Part shown: positions 4,345 through 53,090 of the stretch, piece by piece | How the letters are laid out: the number at the start of each line of letters is the position of its first letter | Numbering within the stretch: the stretch's first letter is position 1 | Virus genome (UHGV): UHGV-0076294 | DNA: 64,000 nt | Direction: 5' to 3' (one strand) | Origin: a virus | Position numbers and translations under genes: made by a program | Notes under the pieces: generated by a model | The model's input: the letters and a program-made list of their open reading frames with translations, nothing else | Told to the model about the DNA's origin: nothing | Database searches by the model: none

Positions 4345-4800
4345 ATGAAATCGCTGTTATTCATCATGATTTTGTGCGTGGGTTTGGTGAGTAATAGCTA
4401 TGGAGAACCCGGTAAACGGTCATCCTATACTGCGTTACAGCCTCCGCCAGCGCCACCTATCATGTTAAATTGGAAAATTGATAAAGACGCGATGCGGGAA
4501 TATGTTGCGGATGTGAATACATACGCTTATTACGTTTATCTCTACACACGAAACTTAAATCAGCAAGCAGTCAAACGCGGGTGGAATCCACCGATGTTAG
4601 CACCTATCTGCGAACGGTTTGAAATTCCTAAATTACATTCCGTTCCAGAAAAGATGCTATTAGACGAGAAAGCGTTAACGCCACAAGAAATCAGTCGGGA
4701 TTTATCACGTAAACTGAATTCGTTGTTGTGGAATTATCGCTCTGACCGGCAAGCTTTATTAGACGCCTACGATCAGTATCTGACAACGTGTTTGAACTGA
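4345..4800 (+). CDS. secreted/periplasmic protein with N-terminal signal peptide
   Basis: 151 aa, SD AAGGAG. Signal-like MKSLLFIMILCVGLVSNSYG then EPGK...PPPAPP. Followed by a UUCG-loop terminator. Confidence 0.75.
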   Translation: MKSLLFIMILCVGLVSNSYGEPGKRSSYTALQPPPAPPIMLNWKIDKDAMREYVADVNTYAYYVYLYTRNLNQQAVKRGWNPPMLAPICERFEIPKLHSVPEKMLLDEKALTPQEISRDLSRKLNSLLWNYRSDRQALLDAYDQYLTTCLN

Positions 4801-4805
4801 CAACG

Positions 4806-4845
4806 CCTCCTGTATCCTTCGGGGTACAGGAGGTATTTTCTTTTT
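4806..4845 (+). terminator. rho-independent terminator with UUCG loop
   Basis: CCTCCTGTAtCC ttcg GGgTACAGGAGG, then TATTTTCTTTTT. Confidence 0.8.
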
Positions 4846-4887
4846 AACGTTTAACCCCCTTCTAATGTATAGAGAAAGGAGCTTAAC

Positions 4888-5622
4888 ATGACATACCCGA
4901 AAACGATTCAACCCACCTTACCGACGCTGGTAATTGGTGCTGACGCAGAAACCAAATCACTGCGTCCTGATGCGTATTTGTTAACCACAGGCTTAGTTGC
5001 CTTTGACGTACCGACTTTAAAAATGGTAGGGTCGTCGTATATGCGTATTGATCCTAACGACCCTAAAGCAAAAGCTGTGTTCCACGAAGACCCGCAAACC
5101 GTGGGGTGGTGGGAAGGTAAAGGAGAACCTGAATACGCGCCGTCTCGTGAAGCCTACACGGAAGCATGGGGTGGTACAACTCCTATGCCGGAAGCGCTGT
5201 GGGCAATGCGGAAGTGGTTAGACGAAATCACCGGCAAACACAATTTCGTTATTACCATGCGTGGGCCAGATTTCGATTCTCCGATTTTCATGAACGCGTT
5301 CGCACAATGTGACGTCCCTCCAGGTAAGTTCCGTAAGTTTAGTGCGTTAGACAGCGACCGCACCGCAGAGCGTTTAGCGCTGGCGTTTGGTTTTGAGCCT
5401 GACTTGACCGTTGAGCAAGTTTACTGGACGCGGGGTAAACCGGCATTTGAACACCATGCTTTGTGGGATGCCGCGAAAGAAGCGTACACCACCGCACGTA
5501 TTTATCACCTTGCACTGATTACCCGCGAGTATGGGTACGAACGTGCTAAAACCTGTCACGAAGAACTGAAAACCGGTGAGTATATTCCACCACAGATTCG
5601 TGATCAGTTAACCAGGGATTAA
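4888..5622 (+). CDS. DnaQ-like DEDDh 3'-5' exonuclease
   Basis: 244 aa. Exo I VIGADAET, Exo II GPDFDSPIF and Exo III HHALWDAAKEA give the DEDDh signature. Confidence 0.75.
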   Translation: MTYPKTIQPTLPTLVIGADAETKSLRPDAYLLTTGLVAFDVPTLKMVGSSYMRIDPNDPKAKAVFHEDPQTVGWWEGKGEPEYAPSREAYTEAWGGTTPMPEALWAMRKWLDEITGKHNFVITMRGPDFDSPIFMNAFAQCDVPPGKFRKFSALDSDRTAERLALAFGFEPDLTVEQVYWTRGKPAFEHHALWDAAKEAYTTARIYHLALITREYGYERAKTCHEELKTGEYIPPQIRDQLTRD

Positions 5623-5624
5623 GA

Positions 5625-7136
5625 ATGAAGAACGTTGATGTTGCTGTACTTTATACCGACGGTAGCCATTTAACCTCACCGATGGGAACAGGCGGTGGGA
5701 TTCACGGCTACCTGTTTAACAAGGAAGAGATTGTTGACGGTGGCGTTTATCGCCACCCTACCATTCCCGAAGGGATTACGACCTCTGGTTATCGTCAGAT
5801 TAACAAAGAGGAAAAACTTCCTGCGTTACCAGACTCTGTTGAGTTCGTAGACTGTGTTATTCCGGTACCGAAACACCACCACTCTGATGTTGCAGAGATT
5901 GTTGCTTTTTTAACCGTTTTCGAAAAAGCACCGTTCGTTGCAAAAAACTACGTTATCTATATCGACGCGTCTTACGTTGTGAATACGTTTAACGATTGGA
6001 TTGACGGTTGGGCTAAGCGGGACTGGCGACGGGCTGATGGAACCCCTATCGCGAACCTTGAACTGGTTCAACGGATGTGGGAAATTAAGAAACGTCTGAA
6101 GAGAGAAGGGAAAGGGATTCGTGTTCTTAAAATCAAAGGACACTCTGGTCACTACGGTAACGAACGGGCTGACGGGCTGGCACGAAAGGGATCATCCATC
6201 TCTGCGCACGGAGAAGGTTTAGATTATCAGGCGTACTGGTCAGCAGACGAAATCCCGGAAGAACAGCAGGAAGAAATCGTCAGTGAAGGCGTTAACGTTG
6301 CCGCGTTTCCTGATATTTGCGTAACTAAGTTCTGTTACCCGATGGTAAATGAGCAACACCCTACGGTTAAAGTAAACGGTGAAAATCTCTATTACATGTT
6401 CGGGGGTAACCACGCAAAACAGAAGGACGATATTGTCTTCGTCGGAAAATACATCCCTGATGCGCAGTTTTGTGTGATGTTTACACGTGAACCGTGGACG
6501 AACGTTTACGATTTGGTTAACGCCCACGCTGCTAAAGCCTGGGAGGGCGTACCACGTTTGCGTCAGTTTGACCCTATCGCTGTTGTGTTCAACCTGTTCG
6601 TAAAACGTAAGAAGTTTGCGGAAGCAGCGGCTAACGGTATCCCGGTTGACAAAATGCACTTTAGCGAAGACAAAAACCTGTGGATGTACGAAGACTTGTC
6701 TATCAGTCGTATTCTGCGTCCCGCGTTATTGTCATACCGCTGCGTAACCATTCGTGATGAACTGGCAGAGTGGCTGCGTGACTGTTTGGAAGGCAAATCG
6801 AACGTTGTCTTAAATGACATTACCGATTTGCTTTATGACGAAAAAGGTAAACCCACCAAAGACTTTTACCGAAACGTGGATAAAGGGTTTGACGTTTCCA
6901 TTAAAATTCCTAACGGGAAGGTTGACGTTAAAACTATTCTGACGCGTGCTATCGACATACCGACACGTACGGAAATCAACCGTATCAAAGAACCAAACGG
7001 GAGATTCTACATTGCCGTACGACGTCCAGAACGTCAGTATATTGAATATGCGTTAGTGTATATCGGTGAGAAGTATCATGGTCTGTGGTGTGGTTATTAT
7101 TCAAACAAACGAATATTGACCGATAAGGAACTTTGA
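5625..7136 (+). CDS. RNase HI domain protein with ~310-aa C-terminal extension of unknown function
   Basis: 503 aa. The first ~190 aa carry RNase HI blocks YTDGS, AEIVAF, IDASYV and HSGHYGNERADGLARKG. The rest has no motif I recognise. Confidence 0.85.
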   Translation: MKNVDVAVLYTDGSHLTSPMGTGGGIHGYLFNKEEIVDGGVYRHPTIPEGITTSGYRQINKEEKLPALPDSVEFVDCVIPVPKHHHSDVAEIVAFLTVFEKAPFVAKNYVIYIDASYVVNTFNDWIDGWAKRDWRRADGTPIANLELVQRMWEIKKRLKREGKGIRVLKIKGHSGHYGNERADGLARKGSSISAHGEGLDYQAYWSADEIPEEQQEEIVSEGVNVAAFPDICVTKFCYPMVNEQHPTVKVNGENLYYMFGGNHAKQKDDIVFVGKYIPDAQFCVMFTREPWTNVYDLVNAHAAKAWEGVPRLRQFDPIAVVFNLFVKRKKFAEAAANGIPVDKMHFSEDKNLWMYEDLSISRILRPALLSYRCVTIRDELAEWLRDCLEGKSNVVLNDITDLLYDEKGKPTKDFYRNVDKGFDVSIKIPNGKVDVKTILTRAIDIPTRTEINRIKEPNGRFYIAVRRPERQYIEYALVYIGEKYHGLWCGYYSNKRILTDKEL

Positions 7137-20438: not shown

Positions 20439-21097
20439 TGGGATTGTTCGATACCCTAGCGCGGCTGGATAAAGCGCAGGAAGAAGAAATCATTCGTGTT
20501 GCTGGTGAGTCCATTAAACACGAAGTCGAAAAGGAATACTGCGTTTGGGTAAAACCTACGCAAGCGGGATGGGATTGGCTCCACGCACAAGAAGCCAAGA
20601 TGTTCATGGACATTCTCATGCCGATAGAAGGTGGGCGTCGTCGTATCCGTATTAAAGAAGACGGTACGGCACAGCTAACGCTTAAGCGTAAGTTCCAGGA
20701 CGGAAAGGTTGAAGAGAATTCGGATATCGGTATTAGTTCCGCACTCTCTTTTTACAAAGACGGTTATTTGGCACACCTGGTGAAACGTATTCACTTAGAG
20801 CCGGGTGAATTAGCCGAGAAAGGGGCTAAGCATTGGGATATTGATATTTTCACTATCACCACCGGACACCCTGCCATTGAAGTTTCAGCTGACTTTAACG
20901 ATCTCATCACCGAGATGCGTAGTAGCACCAGCGTTGGTGACTGGGTGAAAGTTGAACTGGAAGTCGAACGTTACGAGATTGCAGATGTGCTGTCTGTAAT
21001 TCCGTTTGAGTTTGACGGCCATATTCCGGCTACGCCGAAAGATCCTGAAGACCAAGAATATCTTCGTGATTACTGGGATTCAGTTACCCGTATGTAA
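20438..21097 (+). CDS. hypothetical protein; weak CYTH/triphosphate-tunnel-like pattern
   Basis: 219 aa with a TAATG overlap. HEVEKEY, RRRIRIKEDGTAQLTLKRK, VKRIHLEP..HWDIDIF and VKVELEVE follow the order of CYTH strand motifs (ExExK, RxR, T.K, K.R, D.f, ExE). The first motif is off-register. Confidence 0.3.
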   Translation: MGLFDTLARLDKAQEEEIIRVAGESIKHEVEKEYCVWVKPTQAGWDWLHAQEAKMFMDILMPIEGGRRRIRIKEDGTAQLTLKRKFQDGKVEENSDIGISSALSFYKDGYLAHLVKRIHLEPGELAEKGAKHWDIDIFTITTGHPAIEVSADFNDLITEMRSSTSVGDWVKVELEVERYEIADVLSVIPFEFDGHIPATPKDPEDQEYLRDYWDSVTRM

Positions 21098-21101
21098 CAC
21101 C

Positions 21102-21140
21102 TACCCTACTCCCAGACAGGAGTAGGGTATTTTCATTTTT
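21102..21140 (+). terminator. rho-independent terminator; stem identical to the one at 1777
   Basis: TACCCTACTCC cagaca GGAGTAGGGTA, then TTTTCATTTTT. Confidence 0.8.
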
Positions 21141-21160
21141 ACCCTAAAGGAGAATTTACC

Positions 21161-21529
21161 ATGCAAGCTCAGTTTTTTAATACCCCCAACGGGTTCGGTT
21201 TTAGATTCCCTGAATTTGTTTTACCAAAACAAGTTATTGAAGTACCCTTCCCCCGTTATGTGCTATTAGGACTGCGCACTGTACTTGCCAACTTTTCGGG
21301 AAAGACTGTGGAAATTCGTGTGTGGTCAGGTTCGGGAAGTCCTGGTGGTGTTTTGTTTGTCGATTACAATTGGATTAAAAGAACAGGTTTTCCGCTTGTA
21401 CGAAAAGTTGAAGCTGTACACGGATTATCCTTCCACACTCTACTAGGGGATTTATCGTTTCCTGAAACCGGCGATTATTCTTCTCCTGCGGATGACGAAT
21501 ACCAAATTCATCTTGTTTTGTTGAAATGA
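21161..21529 (+). CDS. hypothetical protein
   Basis: 122-aa ORF, SD AAAGGAG, directly after the terminator at 21102. Confidence 0.7.
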   Translation: MQAQFFNTPNGFGFRFPEFVLPKQVIEVPFPRYVLLGLRTVLANFSGKTVEIRVWSGSGSPGGVLFVDYNWIKRTGFPLVRKVEAVHGLSFHTLLGDLSFPETGDYSSPADDEYQIHLVLLK

Positions 21530-21589
21530 TTTTTACAGTTGGGAACAAACTTATGTCTCCCAAGACTGCGTTTAAGCGGAGAAACAATT

Positions 21590-22054
21590 ATGCGTGGATA
21601 TATTCTCGATCTTGCAATTTCTGTAGAAGAACTTGTGGAAAAACTCGGCGGTACCGGTCATGGGCTTCATGGGAAGACCAAAAGCATAGCTCATATTCTC
21701 GAACCAAAATACGAACGGAAACTCCACATGATTGCTTCCGTTCGCAACAAAGCCGCTCACAGGAGAATTCTTCCTGATCGCATAGACGACTATGAACAGG
21801 CTGTGGAAGAAACGAGGCTCTATTTAGAAGAGCTGATTGGGGAAGAAGAACGGAAACGTCGTTGTGAAGAGGAAATAAATCCCAGCTGTCTGGAACGCGA
21901 AGCGATGTGGAGAGAACGGGCAGACGAGGCCAAACGACGTAACGAAGAGAAAAGATGGGACGATATGAGTGTAATAGAAAAGATAGGTTGGGGTGCCGGT
22001 ATTGCAATCATGGGAGCTGCGGTTGCGTACCTTAAAATAAAGTCTCGTGACTAA
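21590..22054 (+). CDS. small HEPN/DUF4145-like protein (RNKAAH motif) with coiled-coil and C-terminal TM anchor
   Basis: 154 aa from ATG 21590 (SD GGAG 8 nt upstream). LHGKTKSIAHILEPKYERKLHMIASVRNKAAH fits the DUF4145/HEPN pattern and contains Rx4H (21743-21760). Charged EEERKRRCEEE region, then the hydrophobic helix IGWGAGIAIMGAAVAYL. Confidence 0.45.
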   Translation: MRGYILDLAISVEELVEKLGGTGHGLHGKTKSIAHILEPKYERKLHMIASVRNKAAHRRILPDRIDDYEQAVEETRLYLEELIGEEERKRRCEEEINPSCLEREAMWRERADEAKRRNEEKRWDDMSVIEKIGWGAGIAIMGAAVAYLKIKSRD

Positions 22055-22068
22055 ATCGGGTATCGGAA

Positions 22069-22614
22069 ATGAAACAAATACAGTTAACTGATCACGTTAA
22101 TGCGTTTAAACACTTTCTGGATAACGCGGGTATAAAACCTGGCGAACAGACAGACGCATGGACTGCACGTGTTTACGGAAGTATTGGCAAAGTCTGTGAG
22201 TCCACGACAACACAGGACGGGTTGTTTGTTGCTAAAGCAGTAGGTATTGCCTTGTGGGATATTGCTGCTTTGGTTTACGTGATGAATAACGGGGATTTAC
22301 GTCCCCTTGAAAAATCTTTACACCGACTACTGGCCATTAAGAAATGGAAAAATGAACATCCTGAGTCAATCGCGATTACGTTGATGCCAGAAGCGGTACT
22401 TGCTATCAAAGCGGTACGCAGTTGTACCGCCCGTGCACAAATGGAGCGTCGGTTACATCTCACGACGCTCTTTTATCAATTGGCCAGAATTGTAAAGATG
22501 AACGGCCTAATCTTCGACCGGGTTCTACAGAACGGACGTATAAGTTGGACAGAAGAACTAAGTAGTTCTCCGTTCTATACAAAACTGAAGCTTAAAGATA
22601 TTTTGAAGGATTAA
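22069..22614 (+). CDS. hypothetical protein
   Basis: 181-aa ORF, co-oriented, short spacers. Confidence 0.75.
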   Translation: MKQIQLTDHVNAFKHFLDNAGIKPGEQTDAWTARVYGSIGKVCESTTTQDGLFVAKAVGIALWDIAALVYVMNNGDLRPLEKSLHRLLAIKKWKNEHPESIAITLMPEAVLAIKAVRSCTARAQMERRLHLTTLFYQLARIVKMNGLIFDRVLQNGRISWTEELSSSPFYTKLKLKDILKD

Positions 22615-22615
22615 C

Positions 22616-22924
22616 ATGGAAAACTATTCGGGTTGGGCGATTTCGCAGTGCATTGGCTATTCTTTACGTTCTTTAGTGCGTACACTTTATAACAAAAACT
22701 CGGGTGAAGCTATTACACCGCAGTTATTGGGCAAACTGGAAGTCGAAGTTAACTATAAACTAAAACAGTTACTCGACAACCACGTAAGAACAATGCGTTG
22801 GGAGTTCTTGCTACGTGGTAAGAAGCCTTCAATTACCGTTGTAGCAGAAGGTAGTGAAATCGTACTGCAATCCAACGCAGACCTGTTTGAAATTTTAACT
22901 GAACTAGAAAAGGACAAAATCTAA
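22616..22924 (+). CDS. hypothetical protein
   Basis: 102-aa ORF; its stop overlaps the thyA start (TAATG). Confidence 0.7.
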
Positions 22925-23964
22925 TGAAACAGTATTTAGCGTTAATGCAAGACATTCTGGATAACGGCGTTGTCAAAAAAGACCGTACGGGCGTAGGGAC
23001 ACTTTCTGTATTTGGTCGCCAACTACGTTTTGACCTGAAAGAAGGTTTCCCATTAGTTACTACGAAAAAGGTTCACCTGAAAAGTATCATTCATGAACTG
23101 TTATGGTTCTTGAACGGTGACACTAACGTGAAGTACCTGCAAGAGAATGGGGTAAGAATCTGGAACGAGTGGGCGAATGAAGAAGGGGAATTAGGCCCTG
23201 TCTACGGACACCAGTGGCGAGAATGGATGGATACCAAACTGGTTTATCTTTGGGACGAGCGTAGCAAGGACGTATTGAGAAAACGAGGATATCGCTACGT
23301 TGGGACTATCGCAAAGGACGATCCTGAAGAAAGTATCGTTATTTATCGCAAATCTCACGACCAGATCAGCAAAGTTATCCAGCAACTTCGTGAAGACCCT
23401 GACTCCCGCCGTATTATCGTTAGTGCCTGGAACGTAGCCGACCTAGACGATATGGCACTTAACCCATGTCACAACTATTTCCAATTCTACACAACGGAAA
23501 TGACGTTGCCTGAACGACTGGATTGGTACGAAGTAAACGAACCGGAAAAATTTGCGAACGCACCACTTATTAATCACGAAGATATCGATAGCGAAGAACG
23601 ACTTCACGAAATTTTAGATCGTGAAGGTATCCCACGTCGTAAACTTTCGTGTTTTTACATGATGCGGAGCAACGATTACCTACTCGGCGCGCCGTTTAAC
23701 GTCGCTTCTTACGCGTTGTTAACCCACATGATTGCTCAACAACTCAATATGGTTCCAGACGAGTTAGTTTACAGTGGCGTGGACGTTCATCTGTACTCTA
23801 ACCATCTGGAGCAGGCAAAACTTCAACTTACTCGCGAACCTTACCCGCTACCTAAACTGGTTATCAAACGTAAACCTGATTCTATCTTCGATTACAAATA
23901 CGAAGACTTCGAATTGGTTGGATATCAATCGCACGACACAATTAAAGCTCCCATAGCTGTCTAA
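22924..23964 (+). CDS. thyA: thymidylate synthase (ThyA) with two insertions
   Basis: 346 aa, near-colinear with E. coli ThyA ([83 protein letters not shown]). Catalytic Cys (PCH) and the dUMP-specifying Asn (PFNVASY) are retained. Confidence 0.95.
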
Positions 23965-29286: not shown

Positions 29287-32200
29287 TTAACCCGCACGTC
29301 TAACGTTAAGCTGTCGTGCTGGCTGTTCAACGGACATTTGTCGTGATGCTGAGCCTGCTGGTGCCATAGGTTGGGTCGATACGGTGTTTTGTACCGGCTG
29401 CGGACGTTGTTTAAGAATCGTGACAATCTCTCTGAGATACCCCGCCGATTCTTTCGCAACAGCCAACTGCTGGACACTAATCGGATCACCGCTACTGAGT
29501 GTAGGCCCGTTTTGTGCATCAGAAGTAACCGCAGGTGCCGGTTTACTCGTTGCTGCTACGCGCTGCACAGCGCCTTCTTTCACCTTCTCGACATCTTCTT
29601 CAGGCAACCCTTCGTTTCTAGCTCCAGCCGCAACGGTCTCCGCAATCGTAGAGGCGTCGCCGCCAGCACTACTACCGCCAGGTGACGGTACTGCCGGACC
29701 ACCACTGGTTGCAGCTTTGACATTGTCTGCACCCATCGCACCTTTCTCTGCTAACGCATCGTCACGACGCGCAGCATTCGATGCGGGCAAGTTATCCGTC
29801 GCTCCAGAAATTGATGGATCGTTAGCTGCTCCTGCTGCTACCGCTGGAGAGGAGGCAACCGCAGGCGTTAGCCCTTTCACCATGTCTTTCGTTGAAGCTG
29901 GGTTAGCCGCAATTTCGTTTGTCGCCACAGCACCCATACGGCGGTTCAGTTCATTAATAACTTCGCCAACAGTACGAATACGAACAATCTGTTCGCCTCG
30001 CATTTCGTAGAAGACTCCCTTATTACCTCTAAGGATTTGAGGAGTAATACCTTCTGCTTTGTCGGCTGGCATGTTCGGATTCTGCCGCCATGCATTAAGG
30101 AACTTCTTACCACCGCCTGGACCCAAGAAGTGATACAGATACGCAACAGCCGGGGGCGGTTCTACACCACCCAGGTCTTTCTGCGCCTGCATGATATTAT
30201 CACGAATAAACTGTACCCCGAGGATGGTATTTGCCCACGGGTCATACTGGTTTACTTGCGGAATACCGTACCGACGAGAATACCCCTTCATCATTCCAGA
30301 CCACGTACTGTCGATGAACTGGAACAACCCTGCTGCTGACGCACCTGGGTTCTTGACGCCGTATCTGAAACCAGATTCAGCTTTCGCCATCGCAATCGCA
30401 ATCGCAGGCGGAACACCTAAGGTATTTGCGACATCTGCAATCATTGCTTTAACGCCTTCTACGTTAGGTGTCTTACCACTACCCAGTTTACTGATTGGAT
30501 ATTTCTCAGCCAAGGTTTTGTAATCACCTTCTTTGACGTCCCCGAGTTTAATCCCGGATTGGCCCGTAGAGAACTTCGCGTAATTGCTGATCCCCATCTC
30601 ACCCACAACTTGAGATAAGTCACCCGGTGTACCGTAAGACGACCCACCGTTTGGCAAGTACCCATCGTTAGACGCTGTACCCCAATCAACGACACCTTTA
30701 AAGCGTTCTTTGCCATCTTCGTCGGTTTGGTACATTCTCGTCGCACGATCGGCTTTCTGCCACTTCGCACGTTTACCTGCTGCGGGAGTAGAGCGCAGGG
30801 TGTTACGAACAGCCAGGTCAGGTTCTTTTGACAGTTCTTTCAGGTTGGCAAGTTCAGTAGCAACAGAACCTGCATCAGTGTTTGCTTCCTCGCCTAGCGG
30901 GTTGAATGGAATCTCCCACACGGACTGTCGAATACCGCCCTTCATGTTGTAAGCGCCACGAATCATCAACGCCAATTCGTACATGAACCCACCGGATACT
31001 TTCAATTCGGTAGGGTCTGCTTGCGGAATGTAACGTTTCAGACCAACGACGTAGGTCATATACGCCGGTAAGAAACGGTTGTAGAACCAGTTCTTACAAC
31101 GCTCCTCTTTAGGACCACCTATCAAGTCAGGCGAGATAACCGCAATGGCTTCTTTCCAGTTGCCTTTATAGGTACAGTTCTTCACATCAATGTCTTTCAA
31201 CACGTTCTTCTCTAACAACGTGAAAAGATTACGCGTTGTTTGGTTGATAGTAACCGCACCGTAGGTTTTCCACCTGACCGATTCCAGGTCTTCCAAATCG
31301 CTTTTCTTCGGTAATGAATGCCAGTCAACTTGGATTTGAACCTGCTCAGTCCCGTCTTCCCATCCTTCAACCTTCGCAACTTTCTCGTTACGTTCAGCAT
31401 CCGCATTCGCCAATACCTGACTGGTTTCAGCAACGGACGCAATTTTGTGGCCTTCGACAGCGTCACGCATACCTGAACGTTGTTTCCGTTTGTCGTCAGT
31501 ACGCATGTTGATTGACCGCCACACACGTTCCTGTGCTTCGACAACCTCTTCCCCTGACAAGAACTCTGCCGGAGTAAAGGTAACGAAATCCCACGCTTTA
31601 GAGAACCAACCCTGGTTAACTTTACGCGGGTCAGTCAACGAACGGAATTCCGCAGAATCTTTACCCATCTTCATTTTGTTGTAGAGGGTAATCATATCCG
31701 CTTTCGACACTTTCTTCGGATCACCAACATCTGCCAAAGCGATATCGTTATCCATAGACTTCAGTGCTGAAATCCAACGGAGGTAAATCGGTGCGAAACG
31801 TTGTAGCATAAACGCAGTAAATGCTAACATCTCACCACGTTCTTCCAAGTTTACACCAAACCCTTCTGCGAGTTTCTTCACGTCTTCGGAAGACAAGCCA
31901 CGTAATTGTGCTTCACCCCCTTCGGTATACGAGACGTAAGGTTTCAAAGCGTCTTCTAAATAACGGGCTTTCATACCGTCTTCAGAAGACCACTGGTCGT
32001 AGTCACGGAAACCGTATTGTGCCAGACGCATATAGTCGAGGTACTGCGCTTTCACACGGGTAGCGCATTTATACGCCCAATAACCCAGACCAGCGGCAGT
32101 CGCACCGATCACAATTGCAGGCCAACCCACCGCAGCTACCACCGTAGATGCAGCTGAGGCTACCGCAGTCACCGCCGGAACCGCTAAACGCTGTACGGCA

Positions 32201-35200
32201 AACTTACCAACATTCCACGCTGCTTTACCGATGAACCCGGTAGGTTTAAAAATACCCCACTTCGCAACTTTACCCAGTATGGAACCCACCGTACCTAAGA
32301 TACTCACGATTGGTCCTACTAACGGTAGCCCTTTGAGGAAGTCCATCACCCCGCCTTTACGTCCTTTCTGTTCGGCGGATTTCTTGGCTTTCTCTTCTTC
32401 CTTAGAACGTCTACGACGACGGAAGAATTGGAAGTAGTCGCGTTTTTCATCATTGGCTGCCGGTTTGTTACGTTGTCCGAACTTACTGAACATCGTACGA
32501 ATCAAGCCATCAGGCGCACCAGCACGTTCCGCAGAGTCACGCATGGTGTTAAACCAGGACATTTCCTGGAGGTTAACCATCCGGTTCAAACGTTCCAGTA
32601 ATGCTGAACCAACACTCTTCGCTTTCTGCTTACCTTTGTTGATAACGCGCCCTGCGCTATCCGTTGCGGTTTCGAAATCCTCCTTCGCTGCGTTAATCAC
32701 GCGTGTTGGAGAAACCTTACCACGGGCGTATAAGTGTTGGCGGTAAAACTCAGCAACGTCATCGTCACGACCTGCTAAACGAGACTCCGCCCGATAACGT
32801 GTACCGATATCGTAGCGTGGATCACGGAAGCTATCCACCGTTTCGCCAAAGCGTCCACGGAAACGGTCAAACCACCCTTTACCCGCAGCACCCCAACGAG
32901 ACAGTCTATCGCCAACACCCTGACGGAAACGTGAGAATCGGTCACGTTGTCTGCCTCGCCAATCCCGGAAACTCTGGAAATAGTCTTTAAACCCATCGCG
33001 GAAATCCTTAACGCGGTTAAGCATCCCTTTGATAGATTTCGACCCAACGTTTTTCTCCAGTTGCTCCGTCCAGGATTCATCTTCAGGCTCACCATCTAAA
33101 CGACGGTTAAGGAGTTTATAGATACGAATCAGGATATGGTTGGTCTTACGGCCATTCGACCAGGAGAACATGCTGAAACCGCCACCAGAACCCCCGTCCT
33201 TACGATTCTGCCACCACCGGGTAAGCGGGTTGTCGGTCGCTAACTCTTTGAATTTCTCAAAGCCACGTTTTGCATTGTTCCACAAACGAGCAGGCATTCC
33301 GGTTACACGGGAAATCATGCTTTGTAAACGTGTTTTCTCACTGCCTTCAGGAATCTCGTTAAGCCACTCACGTGCTTTCTCAAAGATAGACGCTGCTCTT
33401 GGTGAAATTAGACCAATAAGTTTCTTCGGTAAGTTAACAGCTTTGTTTACCGCTGTACCTGCTTTACCGGAGATATACTGGAACAGGGCCTGGAGTTTAC
33501 CGCCTTTATAGAAGCGCAGTTTACCCGCAGCCGCTAAGTCCGCCGCTGCGAGAATCAAGTTCCCGGCTTCGTCAACAATATCACGACCCAGCTTAATGTC
33601 GTCTAACGAGCGGAGTTGTACCAGTTTGTTGGTTTTAGGGTCAGCCTGATAATACTCACCTGCCTCTAAACGGTTTCCTTGTAAAACAACATTGCCTTTC
33701 TCGTCGTAGATGTCTCGAACACCAAGAACGCCTTTCCCGAACGCTACTGCTGAATTCCAGCCTGTGGACAGCGTACCAGTAACTAAACCTTTCAGTCGTT
33801 CAAAAACACCTGGACCGTCAGAAGACCCACCGGAGAACTTCCCACGGATAAAACTGCCCAGTGACTGTAAACGCCCTTTTCCTCTCAGGAACATGTTCTT
33901 CGCAAAACGACCAGCGCCCGTACCGGTGTCCCAAAGTACGCCCGCCCAACGACGGAACAGCCCGCTTTCACCAAGCACAATGCGCTTACGTTTGCGTTTG
34001 TTGCCGGTACTACCCGCGTCTTCGGATGCGACACCCTCACCGTCACGACCACCACCTAAGCTTGCCAACAGAATACCTTCTTCATCCATGTTCTTGACAT
34101 GTTTCAGAATTTCCTGCACGGTGTTGGATTCGGATTTGTTACGGATAGCATCAACGATTCTATCAAACTGTTGCTCTAAACCCGCATTAGTGTCAGGCCG
34201 TTCGCTTAACAGTTCAACAAAGTTGGTGGATTTTTCACCGTAGAGGACAGCAGCGAGTTGTCGTGCTGACAGCCCACGGCCACCACGTCCACCTTTACCT
34301 CTAACGGTGTCGATAGTCGACTCATCACCGGTTACGGAAGCGTCTACACCTAAACGACGCAAATAGTCACCTAACGCAGAACCGTTTTTCAGTTTGCGCT
34401 GGATTTCTTGTTCACGCGTTAACGAACGACCAGAGCGAGTTTTCCCCATGGCCAGGTCGTTGTATAGCGTATACGGATCGTTAATGTCTTTATCTACATC
34501 AAACCGATCGTTCTTCGCATCGTACTTAAAGATACCTGCGTCACGTAACGCATTCTCACCGTAGATAATTGAAGCTTCGTCTACCGTGTTTTGACGTGCA
34601 CGAATTGTTGACTGAATAGCTGAAATCTTACCAGCAATCTCATTGCTAAGTTCATGATGCCCACCAACCAGTTCCGCAGAACGGGCTTCTAAGACCGCCT
34701 GAATCGCTTCTACCGCGTTTGCATTCATGTAACGATACATGTGCATCGGGTCTTTCAGCAGACTGCCTACGTCGAATGCCTTACCTTCAGACGCACGGGA
34801 TTCGATATAGTCCGCCAGCGCCTGGCGAGTTTTCGAATCCAGAGTTTTGTCTTTGTCGATAAAGTCAACGGTTTCGTTAATGTACTGCTGTAAACGTTTA
34901 CGCTGTTCGTCATTAGCAACTGCCTTACGTACGCGATTGCCAATAACTTTACGATCCACCATACCTCGCGTGGTCAGGTCATAAACCTGATCGTGGTGTT
35001 CGCCATATCCACGACGAATAGATTTGTTAATCTCCGTCAGCAAGGTCGGGATGACTTCCGTGATGCTAAGATATGCTTTACGGTCGAACTTCGCTGCTGC
35101 TGATAACGCCTCTGCTGAACGTTCTTCTAAAGCTAATCCCTCACGACGCAGCGGTGTCACTAACCCCATCTCGTGCATTAAACGGAAGACAGTGGCCAAT

Positions 35201-36420
35201 GGACCATCTATCTCACCAGCTATCGCTGAGTTAGAGATAGAAGATAAGTTACCGAACCCGTAGCGTGCCAACTGAAGCCGTTTCATGACTTCTGGGTTCT
35301 TTTCTAACTCACTGCGTGTCCAGTTCTGTAAACGTTCTACTTGCGGTTGTAAGAATCGTTTTGCTAACCAACCACCGGCAAACCCTGCGACTTTACCTCG
35401 GCTATTCGTACGACGACGTTCTGGCGACAGTGTAGAACTGTCTTCCATGTCGAAGTCGTCTTCCTGACCCATTGACAGAACTTGTTCTAATAACCCACGT
35501 CCGTCACTGAAGATATTCGAAATCTTTTTCTTCGCGTTCTCACGGATTTGTTCAATGAACGAATCTGCGTAACGTAAGGGGTTCATCCATTCAGCGGCTT
35601 TACGTTTTACGTTAGCCCAACGAATTTCAGAGAATTCCTCTTTTGCATAATCCGGCAACGCGGTGTTTTTAACAATCGCTTCAAGTGCCGGAGTGTTACG
35701 GCTAAACTCGTCCTGTTTAAGTTTAGCAATATCTTGCAATGCGAATAACGTACGGTATTGCAGCTCTAGCTGTTTACGCTGAACGTTAAGCATCACCCCG
35801 CGACTTAAACTGGTCGTCAGGTTAACGTCTTTCGCAATACCGATAACCGTCTGGAACAGCGCATCGGACTTCATGTCCTTGATGGTGTCACGAAGACGGT
35901 CTTCTACCATTCCTTCCTGAACTTCACGTTGTTGTTCAGGTGTTTGTGGGGTACCTGCAAAAACAGTGTCTAACTCACGATCCATTAACGCTTGTTTAGG
36001 ATCGTAATTCCCGTAATCGTACTGGTCGCTTTTCGCCCATTTATCGATCTTACGGGTTACGCTGTCAGGCAAATACCGTTTTAGGGTTGGGCCTAATTGA
36101 CGAGCTTGTGCCTTCACCACGCGGGAGGTCTTTTCAATCTCGTCTTTCGTATGGGCCAGAATGTCTTGACCTGCGGCTTTGACGTTCTTATAACCTTCAT
36201 AAGCGTCAGACGCCGGTTTTGGCATTCCTTTTAAAATGACCTGATCACGTTTATTTTCGGGCCAGATAGTCGACAATGCCGACTTACGGGCAGCACGAAA
36301 TGTGTCCATGACCGGGTTACGCGATTGGTCTTGTTGACGAGGGGGCTCATCAAAATCGTCCCAGTCGTCCATGTTATCAAGATCGATTTCATCGAAATCG
36401 TCTTTACCTTTTTTAGCCAT
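29287..36420 (-). CDS. giant virion protein with lytic transglycosylase (SLT) domain; tape-measure/cell-puncturing lysin candidate (phiKZ gp181-like)
   Basis: 2377 aa. Acidic N-terminus, central hydrophobic cluster, Arg/Phe-rich repeats, SLT block AMAKAESGFRYGV..AAGLFQFIDSTW..YDPWANTILGVQFI, and an Ala/Ser/Gly/Pro-rich tail. Confidence 0.85.
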   Translation of the reverse strand: MAKKGKDDFDEIDLDNMDDWDDFDEPPRQQDQSRNPVMDTFRAARKSALSTIWPENKRDQVILKGMPKPASDAYEGYKNVKAAGQDILAHTKDEIEKTSRVVKAQARQLGPTLKRYLPDSVTRKIDKWAKSDQYDYGNYDPKQALMDRELDTVFAGTPQTPEQQREVQEGMVEDRLRDTIKDMKSDALFQTVIGIAKDVNLTTSLSRGVMLNVQRKQLELQYRTLFALQDIAKLKQDEFSRNTPALEAIVKNTALPDYAKEEFSEIRWANVKRKAAEWMNPLRYADSFIEQIRENAKKKISNIFSDGRGLLEQVLSMGQEDDFDMEDSSTLSPERRRTNSRGKVAGFAGGWLAKRFLQPQVERLQNWTRSELEKNPEVMKRLQLARYGFGNLSSISNSAIAGEIDGPLATVFRLMHEMGLVTPLRREGLALEERSAEALSAAAKFDRKAYLSITEVIPTLLTEINKSIRRGYGEHHDQVYDLTTRGMVDRKVIGNRVRKAVANDEQRKRLQQYINETVDFIDKDKTLDSKTRQALADYIESRASEGKAFDVGSLLKDPMHMYRYMNANAVEAIQAVLEARSAELVGGHHELSNEIAGKISAIQSTIRARQNTVDEASIIYGENALRDAGIFKYDAKNDRFDVDKDINDPYTLYNDLAMGKTRSGRSLTREQEIQRKLKNGSALGDYLRRLGVDASVTGDESTIDTVRGKGGRGGRGLSARQLAAVLYGEKSTNFVELLSERPDTNAGLEQQFDRIVDAIRNKSESNTVQEILKHVKNMDEEGILLASLGGGRDGEGVASEDAGSTGNKRKRKRIVLGESGLFRRWAGVLWDTGTGAGRFAKNMFLRGKGRLQSLGSFIRGKFSGGSSDGPGVFERLKGLVTGTLSTGWNSAVAFGKGVLGVRDIYDEKGNVVLQGNRLEAGEYYQADPKTNKLVQLRSLDDIKLGRDIVDEAGNLILAAADLAAAGKLRFYKGGKLQALFQYISGKAGTAVNKAVNLPKKLIGLISPRAASIFEKAREWLNEIPEGSEKTRLQSMISRVTGMPARLWNNAKRGFEKFKELATDNPLTRWWQNRKDGGSGGGFSMFSWSNGRKTNHILIRIYKLLNRRLDGEPEDESWTEQLEKNVGSKSIKGMLNRVKDFRDGFKDYFQSFRDWRGRQRDRFSRFRQGVGDRLSRWGAAGKGWFDRFRGRFGETVDSFRDPRYDIGTRYRAESRLAGRDDDVAEFYRQHLYARGKVSPTRVINAAKEDFETATDSAGRVINKGKQKAKSVGSALLERLNRMVNLQEMSWFNTMRDSAERAGAPDGLIRTMFSKFGQRNKPAANDEKRDYFQFFRRRRRSKEEEKAKKSAEQKGRKGGVMDFLKGLPLVGPIVSILGTVGSILGKVAKWGIFKPTGFIGKAAWNVGKFAVQRLAVPAVTAVASAASTVVAAVGWPAIVIGATAAGLGYWAYKCATRVKAQYLDYMRLAQYGFRDYDQWSSEDGMKARYLEDALKPYVSYTEGGEAQLRGLSSEDVKKLAEGFGVNLEERGEMLAFTAFMLQRFAPIYLRWISALKSMDNDIALADVGDPKKVSKADMITLYNKMKMGKDSAEFRSLTDPRKVNQGWFSKAWDFVTFTPAEFLSGEEVVEAQERVWRSINMRTDDKRKQRSGMRDAVEGHKIASVAETSQVLANADAERNEKVAKVEGWEDGTEQVQIQVDWHSLPKKSDLEDLESVRWKTYGAVTINQTTRNLFTLLEKNVLKDIDVKNCTYKGNWKEAIAVISPDLIGGPKEERCKNWFYNRFLPAYMTYVVGLKRYIPQADPTELKVSGGFMYELALMIRGAYNMKGGIRQSVWEIPFNPLGEEANTDAGSVATELANLKELSKEPDLAVRNTLRSTPAAGKRAKWQKADRATRMYQTDEDGKERFKGVVDWGTASNDGYLPNGGSSYGTPGDLSQVVGEMGISNYAKFSTGQSGIKLGDVKEGDYKTLAEKYPISKLGSGKTPNVEGVKAMIADVANTLGVPPAIAIAMAKAESGFRYGVKNPGASAAGLFQFIDSTWSGMMKGYSRRYGIPQVNQYDPWANTILGVQFIRDNIMQAQKDLGGVEPPPAVAYLYHFLGPGGGKKFLNAWRQNPNMPADKAEGITPQILRGNKGVFYEMRGEQIVRIRTVGEVINELNRRMGAVATNEIAANPASTKDMVKGLTPAVASSPAVAAGAANDPSISGATDNLPASNAARRDDALAEKGAMGADNVKAATSGGPAVPSPGGSSAGGDASTIAETVAAGARNEGLPEEDVEKVKEGAVQRVAATSKPAPAVTSDAQNGPTLSSGDPISVQQLAVAKESAGYLREIVTILKQRPQPVQNTVSTQPMAPAGSASRQMSVEQPARQLNVRRAG
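30061..30423 (-). other. SLT (goose-type/Slt70-like) lytic transglycosylase domain inside the giant protein
   Basis: Catalytic Glu in AKAESGF is encoded at 30376-30378 (residue 2015). Followed by GLFQF and the Y..N motifs typical of the family. Confidence 0.8.
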
Positions 36421-51032: not shown

Positions 51033-53090
51033 TTAGCTCTCCGTACTGTCGCGACGATAAACTTTGATCGTCGTGTTGAACTGCGTCAACAGTACACCGC
51101 CTTCAGCTTTAATGTCCAGCGTGATGGAATAGCCGTTAGCTTTGTCATCCGCTGTCATGTACGCACTCGGAGTAATGTTGGCAATACTATCCAGGCGACC
51201 TTCCAAACGCTCGGTGATTTTGTTCTCAATCATTTTCGCGCGTTCGTCGTCCGTCATACGGCTCTCACCGGACATATCTGCCCAAACTTGATCACTGACA
51301 CGATAAACGTAGGTCATGATGAAGTTAAACAGTGCGTTATTCAGCACTGAACGTTCTTCGCTATAGATGGACTGAAGTGCTGGGATGAACAAACGATAGT
51401 AGTCGCGGGAACGTGCAGTAACCAGTGACACATCCCAGTCGGATGCGTAAATCTCGTTACCTTTCCACGGCATACTCAGATCGTACAGATCTTCGATAAT
51501 CGTCTCTTCACCACGGCTGAAGCGATAAGCAGGTTTAGCGCGACCTTCACCGGAACCCAAATACTTCGAGAAGAAGTTCGCGATGCTGTAACACATCGGA
51601 ACCGGTTTCTTGTAAGAGGAGTTACGGATGTAAGCGTCCTGACCACAAATCATCCCACGGCACGCTGGGGTACCGTAATAAGACGATTCAGGTACAGACG
51701 TGATCATTTCGATCAGCGCTGTCTTCACGTTCTCTTCCGTTTGCAGATCGTTACGACCTTGATTGTAAACGTGGGTGCAAAGAGTCAGGAACGTGTTACG
51801 AGAACGACCGATGAAGTTCGTCAGGGCTTTCTTGGTATCCATGCTGAAGCCGGAGTCCCAGAAGCAACCCAGAGAGTATTTCAGTTCGTTATCGTAGCGG
51901 ACTTTACCGCCGTCCGGGAACAGAGACATTTCACGGCGAACCAGTTCGTCGTAAACATCGTTGTTCATGGTCCCGTTACTACCGCCTTGCAGGTAGTGGA
52001 TATTCGAAGCAGAGAAAACAATTTTACCTACTTCTTCAGACGGGTTAACTTGTAAACCGTCGTAGAGCTGACCGGTTAAGTCAACGCCACCGAAAATATC
52101 GACCATATACGGATCGGTAATTGCCGGTTTTGCGTTTTGAATCTTAGATTGGGCCAGTTTCAGCACCGTTTCCAGGTTTTCACGGTAGATGTAAAACTCT
52201 TCGAACGGGCCGTAATCCGGCAGACCACCGATATCCGGCATCGTCTGACGATACGCATCTGGAACGACGACTTCGAAGTCCAGCTGGGTGCTCATCGGCT
52301 GATAGTATGCATCGGGCTTGAAGCTAACATTGATGCTGCTAAGACCTTTGAGGGTCTTCCAAATCACCGGTGATGTTACCCCTGCTAAGGTCTCGAACCA
52401 TTGCAGTGCGTACATACGTCCGCCTACATTCGTCTGATAAGCAGACGCAATAGACGGGCTGGATTTTTCGTTCAGCGGAACCAGTTTGAAACCAAATCCG
52501 TTGACATCAGAACCCGCGTACGGACCTTTGATATCAAAAATCGGATAGAGTTTTGATTTCGCCTGAGTCTCGGTATCAGTCATCGTACCTTCGGTGACGG
52601 TGCCCGCTTTTACGTTGCTGACATCATCGATGACGGACAGTCGGAAGACGATTTTCAGACCGTCTACCTGTTCTTTGACTTTCGGCTTACCGCTTACGTC
52701 GTACTGAATCGCGCCGTTCTCACGCTCATAAGCGGGAACTTTCGTTTCCAGTACGTCAGCAACCAGACGGATAGCTGCGGTTTTCGCATCATCCGGTACC
52801 AGGCGCTGATACATGCAATCGTTACCGTTAGCGTTGAACATCGCCTGGAAAGGTGTGTTAAACGTCGCGTAATCGCCACGCAGGTCGAACAAATCGCGAC
52901 CAAGCAGAGACAATGCATTATCCCCGGATAACGGGAACGCCTCGTCGTCTACCCCGCGTGAAGCAAAGGTGAAGATCAGCGGCTTATGAATCGGATCACC
53001 CGTGGGGGTCCGAACAAGCTCAGGGACAGAATTGTCCTGCCACCCCTGCTTGTTATTCAACGGCGCGCCGTTTCGTGGAATAAAACTCAT
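51033..53090 (-). CDS. putative tail sheath protein (position and size as phiKZ gp29)
   Basis: 685 aa with very strong codon bias, SD GGAG 8 nt upstream. A major structural gene by expression signature. Sheath versus another major virion protein cannot be resolved by eye. Confidence 0.45.
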   Translation of the reverse strand: MSFIPRNGAPLNNKQGWQDNSVPELVRTPTGDPIHKPLIFTFASRGVDDEAFPLSGDNALSLLGRDLFDLRGDYATFNTPFQAMFNANGNDCMYQRLVPDDAKTAAIRLVADVLETKVPAYERENGAIQYDVSGKPKVKEQVDGLKIVFRLSVIDDVSNVKAGTVTEGTMTDTETQAKSKLYPIFDIKGPYAGSDVNGFGFKLVPLNEKSSPSIASAYQTNVGGRMYALQWFETLAGVTSPVIWKTLKGLSSINVSFKPDAYYQPMSTQLDFEVVVPDAYRQTMPDIGGLPDYGPFEEFYIYRENLETVLKLAQSKIQNAKPAITDPYMVDIFGGVDLTGQLYDGLQVNPSEEVGKIVFSASNIHYLQGGSNGTMNNDVYDELVRREMSLFPDGGKVRYDNELKYSLGCFWDSGFSMDTKKALTNFIGRSRNTFLTLCTHVYNQGRNDLQTEENVKTALIEMITSVPESSYYGTPACRGMICGQDAYIRNSSYKKPVPMCYSIANFFSKYLGSGEGRAKPAYRFSRGEETIIEDLYDLSMPWKGNEIYASDWDVSLVTARSRDYYRLFIPALQSIYSEERSVLNNALFNFIMTYVYRVSDQVWADMSGESRMTDDERAKMIENKITERLEGRLDSIANITPSAYMTADDKANGYSITLDIKAEGGVLLTQFNTTIKVYRRDSTES

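Follow-up and report, generated by a model that had tools for sequence, protein, structure and literature searches.

A Minimal HEPN Domain with a Predicted C-Terminal Membrane Anchor in an SPN3US-Like Jumbo Phage and Its Bacterial and Prophage Relatives

HEPN ribonucleases (RNases) are the executioners in many bacterial immune systems, such as Cas13, Csm6, HepT, RAZR, and HepS. What, then, is the role of a 154-amino-acid (aa) phage protein that combines an N-terminal HEPN-like domain with a C-terminal hydrophobic helix? This protein, named here the HEPN-spacer-TM protein after its HEPN domain, spacer, and predicted transmembrane (TM) helix, is encoded in the virus genome UHGV-0076294, a stretch of 64,000 nucleotides of which was analyzed (the window; coordinates are positions in it). 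It belongs to a well-defined, widespread family and does not represent a categorically new mechanism. On balance, the gene probably encodes a tail-anchored, membrane-tethered HEPN RNase that acts as a phage-borne conflict effector. A previous reading made from the DNA letters alone (the sequence-only reading) had proposed a DUF4145-like minimal HEPN domain, a coiled coil, a membrane anchor, and a two-gene cassette.

Fold and conserved residues of the HEPN domain

Because an Rx4H string on its own is common and means little, several independent tests were applied. In active HEPN domains, the motif ends helix 3, the Arg is followed by a polar residue, and a conserved acidic residue, often within an Ex3[KR] element, is found upstream (PMC3710099). 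The N-terminal domain of the HEPN-spacer-TM protein is modeled by AlphaFold2 (AF2) with a predicted local distance difference test (pLDDT) score of ∼90, as an all-alpha, up-down helical bundle of the HEPN type. In this model, R52-x4-H57 closes helix 39-57, which is followed by a loop (residues 58 to 64) and helix 65-96. The residue after R52 is the polar N53, and E13 with the adjacent E14-x3-K18 matches the conserved acidic residue and the Ex3[KR] element.

Altogether, 57 close homologs of this protein were found. The R52, N53, K54, and H57 residues are invariant in the alignment of 19 phage-clade homologs. Among 42 relatives with 18 to 49% identity, the sole invariant positions are E13, G23, R52, N53, and H57, with L16, G20, G25, H27, S32, A49, and K54 being near-invariant. 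The resulting family signature, E..LL...GAxGxGLHEKxxS...L.....K.R.IAxxRNKxxHE, includes a characteristic loop that is located, according to the structure model, in an insert between the first helix and the motif-bearing helix. Hence, the very residues predicted to be catalytic are the ones that stay invariant in this highly divergent family, apparently under strong purifying selection.

Profile searches consistently retrieved HEPN families. The family consensus matched HEPN_RiboL-PSP with an E value of 1.8e-4 (21.9 bits; curated cutoff, 28.4), DUF4145 with 1.2e-3 (19.3 bits; cutoff, 23.1), and HEPN_Cthe2314 with 0.016 (15.7 bits; cutoff, 27.1). In PADLOC, the consensus hit the HEPN part of PD-T7-4/RAZR (5.8e-4; a weak match that covers only positions 108 to 164 of 211 in the model) and Cas13d (1e-3). 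The best sequence match in the PDB was HepS, with an E value of 0.064, in which the RNKavH string of the family is aligned to IRNKYAH. Scans of PHROGs, NCBIfam, and PADLOC with the 154-aa protein itself produced no match. In one fold comparison, MtlR, Roquin, Csm6, and HepS appeared at lower ranks. With Foldseek, too, the top ranks belonged to HepT toxins, with E values of 0.3 to 2; no significant match was found among viral predicted structures.

The relationship to DUF4145 deserves a separate comment. The 154-aa protein aligns with this profile (residues 12 to 74 to profile positions 22 to 86 of 88) with an E value of 0.03 and 14.8 bits. DUF4145 was matched by 9 of the 19 phage-clade homologs (best E value in the clade, 0.013) and Abi_2 by 5; an E value of ≤1e-3 to DUF4145 was seen in just 6 of 61 distant relatives. 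Judging from these profile comparisons, the family is best described as a separate sister of DUF4145 within the HEPN clan (CL0291), with a signature of its own. Since the first DUF4145 profile position to be matched is 22 and the modeled structure consists of three long helices and a short one, the term “minimal” appears apt, and the canonical helix 1 may be missing.

The minimal HEPN-fold domain with an intact R-N-x3-H motif, as put forward in the sequence-only reading, is thus supported by motif conservation, profiles, and fold, and the two residues singled out in that reading, R52 and H57, proved invariant in both alignments. Its assignment of residues 26 to 57 (LHGKTKSIAHILEPKYERKLHMIASVRNKAAH) to the DUF4145 pattern holds with respect to the sequence and the position of RNKAAH, but not with respect to DUF4145 membership, the score being 14.8 bits against 23.1. 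In the profile searches, HEPN families come out best, although none reaches its curated cutoff. In sum, the domain probably has a genuine HEPN fold, for which catalysis can be predicted from the conserved sequence.

The spacer and the C-terminal hydrophobic helix

The segment that follows the HEPN domain is highly charged, just as the sequence-only reading had it, and is predicted to be helical in the studied protein. The coiled coil that was proposed there is not a conserved feature: within the phage clade, this spacer varies from being absent (in a subclade of 136-aa proteins) to being ∼60 residues longer, and in the bacterial relatives it is a low-complexity region rich in Ser, Pro, and Thr. 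Its pLDDT values are only 49 to 60.

The single hydrophobic helix at the extreme C terminus was recognized correctly. The I132-I150 segment is the only hydrophobic stretch in the protein, with a mean Kyte-Doolittle hydropathy of 1.68 over the 17 residues from 132 to 148, compared to 0.88 for the best segment elsewhere, and with just 4 to 6 residues remaining after it. The respective value in the 136-aa subclade is 2.18. Five residues of this helix (G137, I138, A139, I140, and A144) are invariant in the alignment of the 19 phage-clade proteins. As there is no signal peptide and the HEPN domain starts at residue 1, this domain can be expected to reside in the cytoplasm.

A large family in bacteria, prophages, and a jumbo phage

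A profile of residues 1 to 86, searched against 1.84 billion representative proteins, retrieved 351 clusters at E values of ≤1e-3 (at least 351 at 50% identity). TM helix prediction covered the best 147 distant relatives from these clusters. At least one membrane helix was predicted in 108 of the 147, and in 61 of them a TM segment ends 12 or fewer residues from the C terminus; in the same set, the Rx4H motif is almost always found at residues 52 to 66. A scan with the pattern GAxGRGLHEK, in which each species was represented by one genome, revealed 62 bacterial loci, and the open reading frame (ORF) was readable in 59 of them. In all but a few of these 59 ORFs, the HEPN domain is followed by a low-complexity spacer and then by a hydrophobic helix, and most of them stop a few residues past that helix. 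The compact members of the family are ∼110 to 190 aa long; family-wide, the TM sequences show no conservation.

The 62 loci come from Planctomycetota (Phycisphaerae, Thermoguttaceae, and Brocadiaceae), Verrucomicrobiota, and other phyla, and include members of Pseudomonas, Ferrimonas, Acinetobacter, Xanthomonas, and Sulfurimonas. The family thus spans Planctomycetota, Proteobacteria, Verrucomicrobiota, prophages, and a jumbo phage, with the predicted membrane tether as a constant feature. Judged by the predicted helices, the tail-anchored layout, which had been considered unusual for HEPN proteins, is the norm in a large family from bacteria and prophages.

Some family members depart from this layout. 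In Thermoguttaceae, the proteins P0059 and P0060 combine a tandem of two HEPN domains with membrane helices on one chain, and an ORF at positions 5977 to 6627 of locus L052 contains two HEPN copies with no predicted TM helix. Such tandem forms would be expected if a HEPN pair is needed and fit a working unit of two HEPN domains. They look like the presumed dimer fused into one chain and recall the two HEPN domains of Cas13. Elsewhere, in four Ferrimonas proteins (L010, L014, L034, and L046) and one from Rubrivivax (L056), the module runs on into a long extracytoplasmic C-terminal region, for a total of 470 to 653 aa, which suggests that the anchor can be elaborated into a sensor.

No conserved neighbor was found across the lineages represented by the 62 bacterial loci. 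The apparently recurrent neighbors turned out to be shadow ORFs lying antisense to the HEPN gene or to reflect lineage-level synteny. In two loci, from Xanthomonas and Ferrimonas (L017 and L010), the neighborhood includes NERD nucleases, namely a NERD-helicase and a NERD protein. The homolog in a Pseudomonas prophage (L027) is divergent from and adjacent to a gene for a lambda S-type holin (5384 to 5719 and 5914 to 6429), and the homolog in a temperate-phage contig (L069) is divergently placed beside a holin-like gene (4477 to 4848 and 4998 to 5399), between it and the integrase gene, with the gene for the large terminase subunit further along. In a third contig (L068), the homolog is found beside tail genes. 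The proximity of holins may point to a link to lysis or membrane-damage sensing, or may simply mark a moron site. By analogy with HepS, which is encoded in the Gifsy-1 prophage, this scattered, mobile-element-linked distribution of a single gene would be typical of conflict genes.

Comparison with known HEPN proteins

The DUF4145 family (PF13643), which includes RAZR/PD-T7-4 and BxaP, shares with the current family the helix-loop-helix pattern E..L...G..L..K......L..hRN.aaH. The DUF4145 domain of RAZR is a proven single-stranded RNA nuclease that depends on its R and H residues and is used in abortive infection (PMC13017515). However, both the 154-aa protein and the family consensus score below the gathering cutoff, and the first 21 profile positions have no counterpart in them. 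The zinc finger, restriction endonuclease, and helicase domains of DUF4145 systems are absent here; instead, there is the distinct GAxGxGLHEK loop and the C-terminal membrane helix. The domain order also differs, as RAZR/PD-T7-4 has an N-terminal Cys4 zinc finger and a C-terminal DUF4145 domain, whereas in the studied protein HEPN is N-terminal.

Membrane-associated HEPN proteins in general had already been cataloged, and Csx28 is an example of them. The three groups described comprise an N-terminal TM segment with a WP signature combined with DUF4145; an N-terminal domain and a TM segment combined with an Abi2/SWT1-type HEPN; and an N-terminal HEPN followed by two TM segments and a Zn ribbon (PMC3710099). 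Like these, the current family combines a cytoplasmic HEPN domain that has an intact Rx4-6H motif with a membrane segment, and signal-dependent cleavage of RNA along the inner membrane face can be predicted for it. None of the three has the very short layout seen here, with HEPN at the N terminus, then a disordered spacer, and a lone tail anchor, although some relatives with two or more TM segments may overlap the third group.

Csx28, the accessory protein of type VI-B CRISPR systems, is similarly a small protein with a HEPN-type four-helix bundle, one membrane helix, and a role in antiviral conflict. It forms an octameric pore, with non-catalytic HEPN residues at the protomer interface (bioRxiv 10.1101/2021.11.02.466367). 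In contrast to the studied protein, whose TM helix is C-terminal and whose motif is canonical, Csx28 has an N-terminal TM helix, a divergent motif, and a requirement for Cas13b. No sequence match to Csx28 was seen, PADLOC showed no Cas13b accessory match for the 154-aa protein, and its neighbors are phage genes, with no CRISPR nearby. Similarity to HepS, the abortive-infection HEPN protein of Gifsy-1 (PDB 9oij and 9oik, the latter of the H105A mutant), is limited to the motif helix, in which RNKAAH is aligned with IRNKYAH; HepS is a soluble protein of 212 aa with no TM helix, activated, according to the PDB title, by binding of a tail-tip protein. HepT of the HEPN-MNT (HepT-MntA) pairs is soluble as well, and no adjacent minimal nucleotidyltransferase (MNT) antitoxin was found in this case: the 122-aa protein encoded next to the HEPN gene has no nucleotidyltransferase signature by any profile, and the bacterial relatives have no conserved neighbor.

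A mobile-element antiphage system named “HEPN-TM,” from phage-inducible chromosomal islands (PICIs), is described, in the mention of Fillol-Salom et al. (2022) in PMC12948488, as a combination of HEPN with a transmembrane element. PADLOC v2 contains no model for it. In that system, HEPN and TM are reportedly separate proteins, not parts of one chain. No name and no Pfam, PADLOC, or NCBIfam model was found for the current family. In the literature searched, its compact architecture of N-terminal HEPN, spacer, and tail anchor, the loop with H27, the size and spread of the family, and its presence in a persistent jumbo phage appear to be undescribed, with the PICI HEPN-TM system being compared by its description only.

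The phage and its variable slot

The phage is an SPN3US-like member of the phiKZ-like jumbo phages, judging from the neighboring 219-aa protein, which is 59% identical to SPN3US gp225, and from a gene order that corresponds to those in SPN3US and Erskinevirus. A protein with a lytic transglycosylase (SLT) domain, a gp29-type tail sheath homolog, and a DUF7193 protein (Table 1) confirm the phiKZ-like virion module. No DNA match was found by megablast in 50,697 phage records. However, DNA of 93 to 94% identity is present in two circular replicons annotated as plasmids, one of 221,873 bp in E. coli 98232 from human urine (NZ_CP173450.1; L074) and one of 222,441 bp in Enterobacter ludwigii from a gull cloaca (NZ_CP134650.1). 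Homologous proteins are also encoded in contigs of 221 to 226 kb from Salmonella, Shigella, and E. coli isolates and from gut metagenomes. These circular replicons fit the description of persistent Seoul-like jumbo phages, members of the Chimalliviridae that encode chimallin and turn up in bacterial assemblies (bioRxiv 10.1101/2024.12.31.630880); this phage is probably nucleus-forming.

In SPN3US and Erwinia phages, the genes for the gp225 homolog and gp228/thyA are separated by a gp226-like/gp227-like pair, whose products are 44 to 56% (gp226-like) and 48% (gp227-like) identical between genera. In the studied clade, this place is taken by the 122-aa ORF and the HEPN-spacer-TM gene, which always occur together in the relatives. 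No relatedness of either gene to gp226 or gp227 could be detected; the pair seems to have replaced gp226/gp227 as a unit, which leaves a clade-specific partnership as a bare possibility. The sequence-only reading was right in placing a two-gene cassette, starting with the 122-aa ORF, directly after the terminator at 21102; its suggestion of the 122-aa protein as a partner does not extend to the family, as this protein has no homologs outside the phage clade and the bacterial members have no conserved neighbor.

The 122-aa protein has 11 homologs, all in the phage clade, with 61 invariant columns in their alignment. It showed no match to Pfam, PHROG, NCBIfam, PADLOC, or PDB profiles, and its AF2 model is poor (pLDDT of 50). 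An equivalence to SPN3US gp226, suggested by similar ends (MQ..FF.N and QI.L.L), was rejected on the basis of a BLASTP E value of 0.5, probabilities of <1% in two hhalign runs, and shuffle z-scores of 0.1 and -0.5. An MNT-like nucleotidyltransferase reading of the string SGSGSPGGVLFVDYN was similarly dropped, as it had no profile support and the G is not conserved.

Predicted function and alternative explanations

If the HEPN-spacer-TM protein is indeed a conflict effector, its 86-residue HEPN domain would be held in the cytoplasm, through the variable spacer, by one C-terminal helix in the inner membrane, with R52, N53, and H57 as the predicted catalytic set, along with E13 and possibly H27. 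Since HEPN active sites are composite (PMC3710099), activity is expected to require the meeting of two tethered domains. Monomers diluted in the two dimensions of the membrane would be inactive, and their clustering or dimerization in response to a membrane or infection signal would start metal-independent RNA cleavage near the membrane. A clustering logic of this kind was proposed for membrane HEPN proteins by Anantharaman et al., in analogy with Ire1 (PMC3710099). If the tether does control activity, this family would be a bacterial counterpart of the Ire1-type activation by clustering, in the form of a very small, portable effector.

Such an effector would most likely serve in competition between phages, in superinfection exclusion, or in protecting the carrier cell, with the phage DNA presumably sheltered from it in the phage nucleus. 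A conflict or guarding role is favored because the closest isolates lack the gene, which is accessory, because the family behaves like a defense moron, and because the phage persists in cells, where exclusion pays off. This makes it a candidate gene for work on how jumbo phages persisting in clinical isolates of Enterobacteriaceae live alongside their hosts and guard them.

Several observations weigh against this assignment. All the profile matches are below curated thresholds, even if the best ones are all to HEPN families; the Foldseek E values are not significant; and the model has three long helices and one short one, with the first 21 DUF4145 positions unmatched. The hydrophobic helix is short, of moderate hydropathy (1.68) and low pLDDT, so that membrane insertion is a prediction, and of the last four residues, three carry a charge (K151, R153, and D154) and two of these are basic, a less than ideal composition for translocation. 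Many bacterial members are surrounded by housekeeping genes, so a non-defense role is possible. A constitutive RNase would also cut the cytoplasmic mRNAs of the phage itself, a weakness of the model unless cleavage is confined in space or has to be triggered. Neither slot gene has a recognizable sigma-70-like promoter 5′ of it, and the one shared octamer is not enriched (see below). Finally, RNase activity and membrane localization of the family members are predicted from sequence.

A bolder version of the same proposal, one that is unlikely to hold in full, would see in this family a novel and widespread type of immune or exclusion effector, encoded by a single gene, in which the anchor works as a switch: perturbation of the membrane, or clustering at the site of phage entry or lysis, would pair the HEPN domains and fire the RNase. 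In the jumbo phage, the 122-aa protein might then act as a brake, and the effector might help hold the carrier cell, exclude rivals, or slow the cell down, with the genome safe in its protein nucleus. If true, it would be a determinant of the persistent lifestyle of the Seoul-like jumbo phages.

Other explanations start from the membrane helix or from the motif itself. In a Csx28-like effector, the HEPN domain would be a non-catalytic module for oligomerization or sensing, and the Gly/Ala-rich helix would form a pore that depolarizes the membrane, leading to dormancy, exclusion, or timed lysis with no cutting of RNA. Small-xxx-small spacing is indeed seen in the helix (G133/G137 and G135/A139/A143), where G137, A139, and A144 are invariant, and two prophage members adjoin holin genes. 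However, the complete signature (the R, the polar N after it, the H, and the acidic residue upstream) does not vary in this very divergent family, whereas Csx28, apart from its divergent motif and the N-terminal position of its TM helix, has its R residue locked in a buried salt bridge. Proteins with two HEPN domains in tandem are in line with a composite active site, and the lack of TM sequence conservation across the family, together with the disorder and variability of the spacer, speaks for an anchor over a pore. A pure pore former is, accordingly, quite improbable. The idea that RNKAAH is a chance motif in some structural or coiled-coil membrane protein can be considered very improbable indeed, given that independent methods all rank HEPN families first, that exactly the catalytic-type residues are invariant at 18 to 49% identity, and that the motif occupies its canonical structural position.

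The remaining alternatives concern the role of the gene in the phage. The 122-aa protein could neutralize a HEPN-TM toxin, in an addiction pair that stabilizes the episomal phage in dividing cells or in a triggered abortive-infection pair. Small antitoxins encoded upstream are frequent companions of HEPN toxins, as in HEPN-MNT (PMC3710099), and the two genes, 60 bp apart on the same strand, are confined to one post-terminator slot, in which they stand in for the gp226/gp227 pair conserved in Seoulvirus and Erskinevirus; neither protein has a tblastn match in the 50,697 deposited phage records, and the clade occurs as a replicon in bacterial isolates. All the same, linkage explains co-occurrence in a single clade equally well, the 122-aa family has no member outside that clade and no match to MNT/nucleotidyltransferase or antitoxin families, with an uninformative structure model, and the HEPN-TM family at large appears to work without it because the 62 bacterial loci have no conserved neighbor. 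A toxin-antitoxin system is, for these reasons, rather doubtful. About equally doubtful would be a housekeeping RNase at the membrane, engaged in host takeover, in RegB-like processing or decay of transcripts, or in the regulation of lysis timing, with no part in conflicts between elements. The location of the gene in a virulent-type phiKZ-like phage, with a structural block on one side and nucleotide-metabolism genes (thyA) on the other, its strong conservation within the clade, and the RNA processing at the membrane proposed for membrane-associated HEPN proteins (PMC3710099) would all agree with such a function. Still, SPN3US and Erskinevirus, the closest sequenced relatives, do without this gene and have unrelated genes in the slot; the absence of homologs in the deposited phage records argues that it is accessory, not core; and elsewhere the family is sporadic and found for the most part in bacteria and prophages.

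Coordinates and flanking features of the locus

The features of the locus are listed in Table 1. A mechanical ORF list gives the HEPN gene as 21539 to 22054, with a TTG start at 21539; ATG 21590 (MRGYIL...) is taken as the true start because every homolog begins with MR. The hairpin upstream of the slot has 11 pairs, 6 of them G-C, followed by a T-run; in three relatives (L001, L002, and L074), its stem is kept and the loop differs.

Table 1. Features of the HEPN-spacer-TM locus and phage marker genes in the window
Feature	Position	Strand	Remarks
Intrinsic-terminator-like hairpin	21102..21139	+	Stem TACCCTACTCC-loop-GGAGTAGGGTA, then TTTTCATTTT; closes the upstream structural-gene block
122-aa ORF, first gene in the slot	21161..21529	+	AGGAG at 21148-21152
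154-aa HEPN-spacer-TM gene	21590..22054, including stop	+	ATG at 21590; GGAG at 21578-21581
Minimal HEPN domain, residues 1-86	21590..21847	+	Helices 2-18, 25-32, 39-57, and start of 65-96
Invariant acidic residue E13	21626..21628	+	Beside E14-x3-K18; 5′ of the motif
Signature loop G20-G-T-G-H-G-L-H27-G-K-T-K-S32	21647..21685	+	Consensus GAxGxGLHEKxxS; H27 near-invariant
Rx4H motif R52-N-K-A-A-H57 (RNKAAH)	21743..21760	+	End of helix 39-57
Charged spacer, residues 84-125	21839..21964	+	27 of 42 residues D/E/K/R (64%)
C-terminal Gly/Ala-rich hydrophobic helix, residues 132-150	21983..22039	+	IGWGAGIAIMGAAVAYLKI, then only KSRD
thyA	22924-23964		
2377-aa protein	29287-36420	-	SLT lytic transglycosylase domain near residue 2000
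phiKZ gp29-type tail sheath homolog	51033-53090	-	
838-aa DUF7193 protein	54069-56585	+	

No sigma-70-like promoter was found upstream of the 122-aa ORF or of the HEPN gene, and an Rfam scan of positions 20500 to 22500 produced no match. The octamer ATTTTTAC is found 5′ of both slot genes (21135 to 21142 and 21529 to 21536), and the HEPN gene is also preceded by a conserved TTATGTCTCCC. The octamer was considered as a shared promoter motif and dropped: because it is not enriched in the window (5 occurrences versus 4.6 expected), no promoter claim is made for it. The GC content of the slot (0.41 to 0.47) is similar to that of its flanks and gives no sign of recent acquisition.

Downstream of the HEPN gene, two adjacent ORFs correspond to one family, phrog_10269 (299 aa), the ORF at 22069 to 22614 (181 aa) to its N-terminal part and the ORF at 22616 to 22924 (102 aa) to its C-terminal part. 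Together they are the equivalent of the single 289-aa SPN3US gp228; in this clade, the gene is split or carries a stop or a frameshift, and the relatives share the split. In the E. coli replicon (L074), an extra ORF of 106 aa (5111 to 5431) is found between the gene for the 102-aa protein and thyA, a site that is empty in the window (at 22924) and represents a second small variable spot near the HEPN slot.

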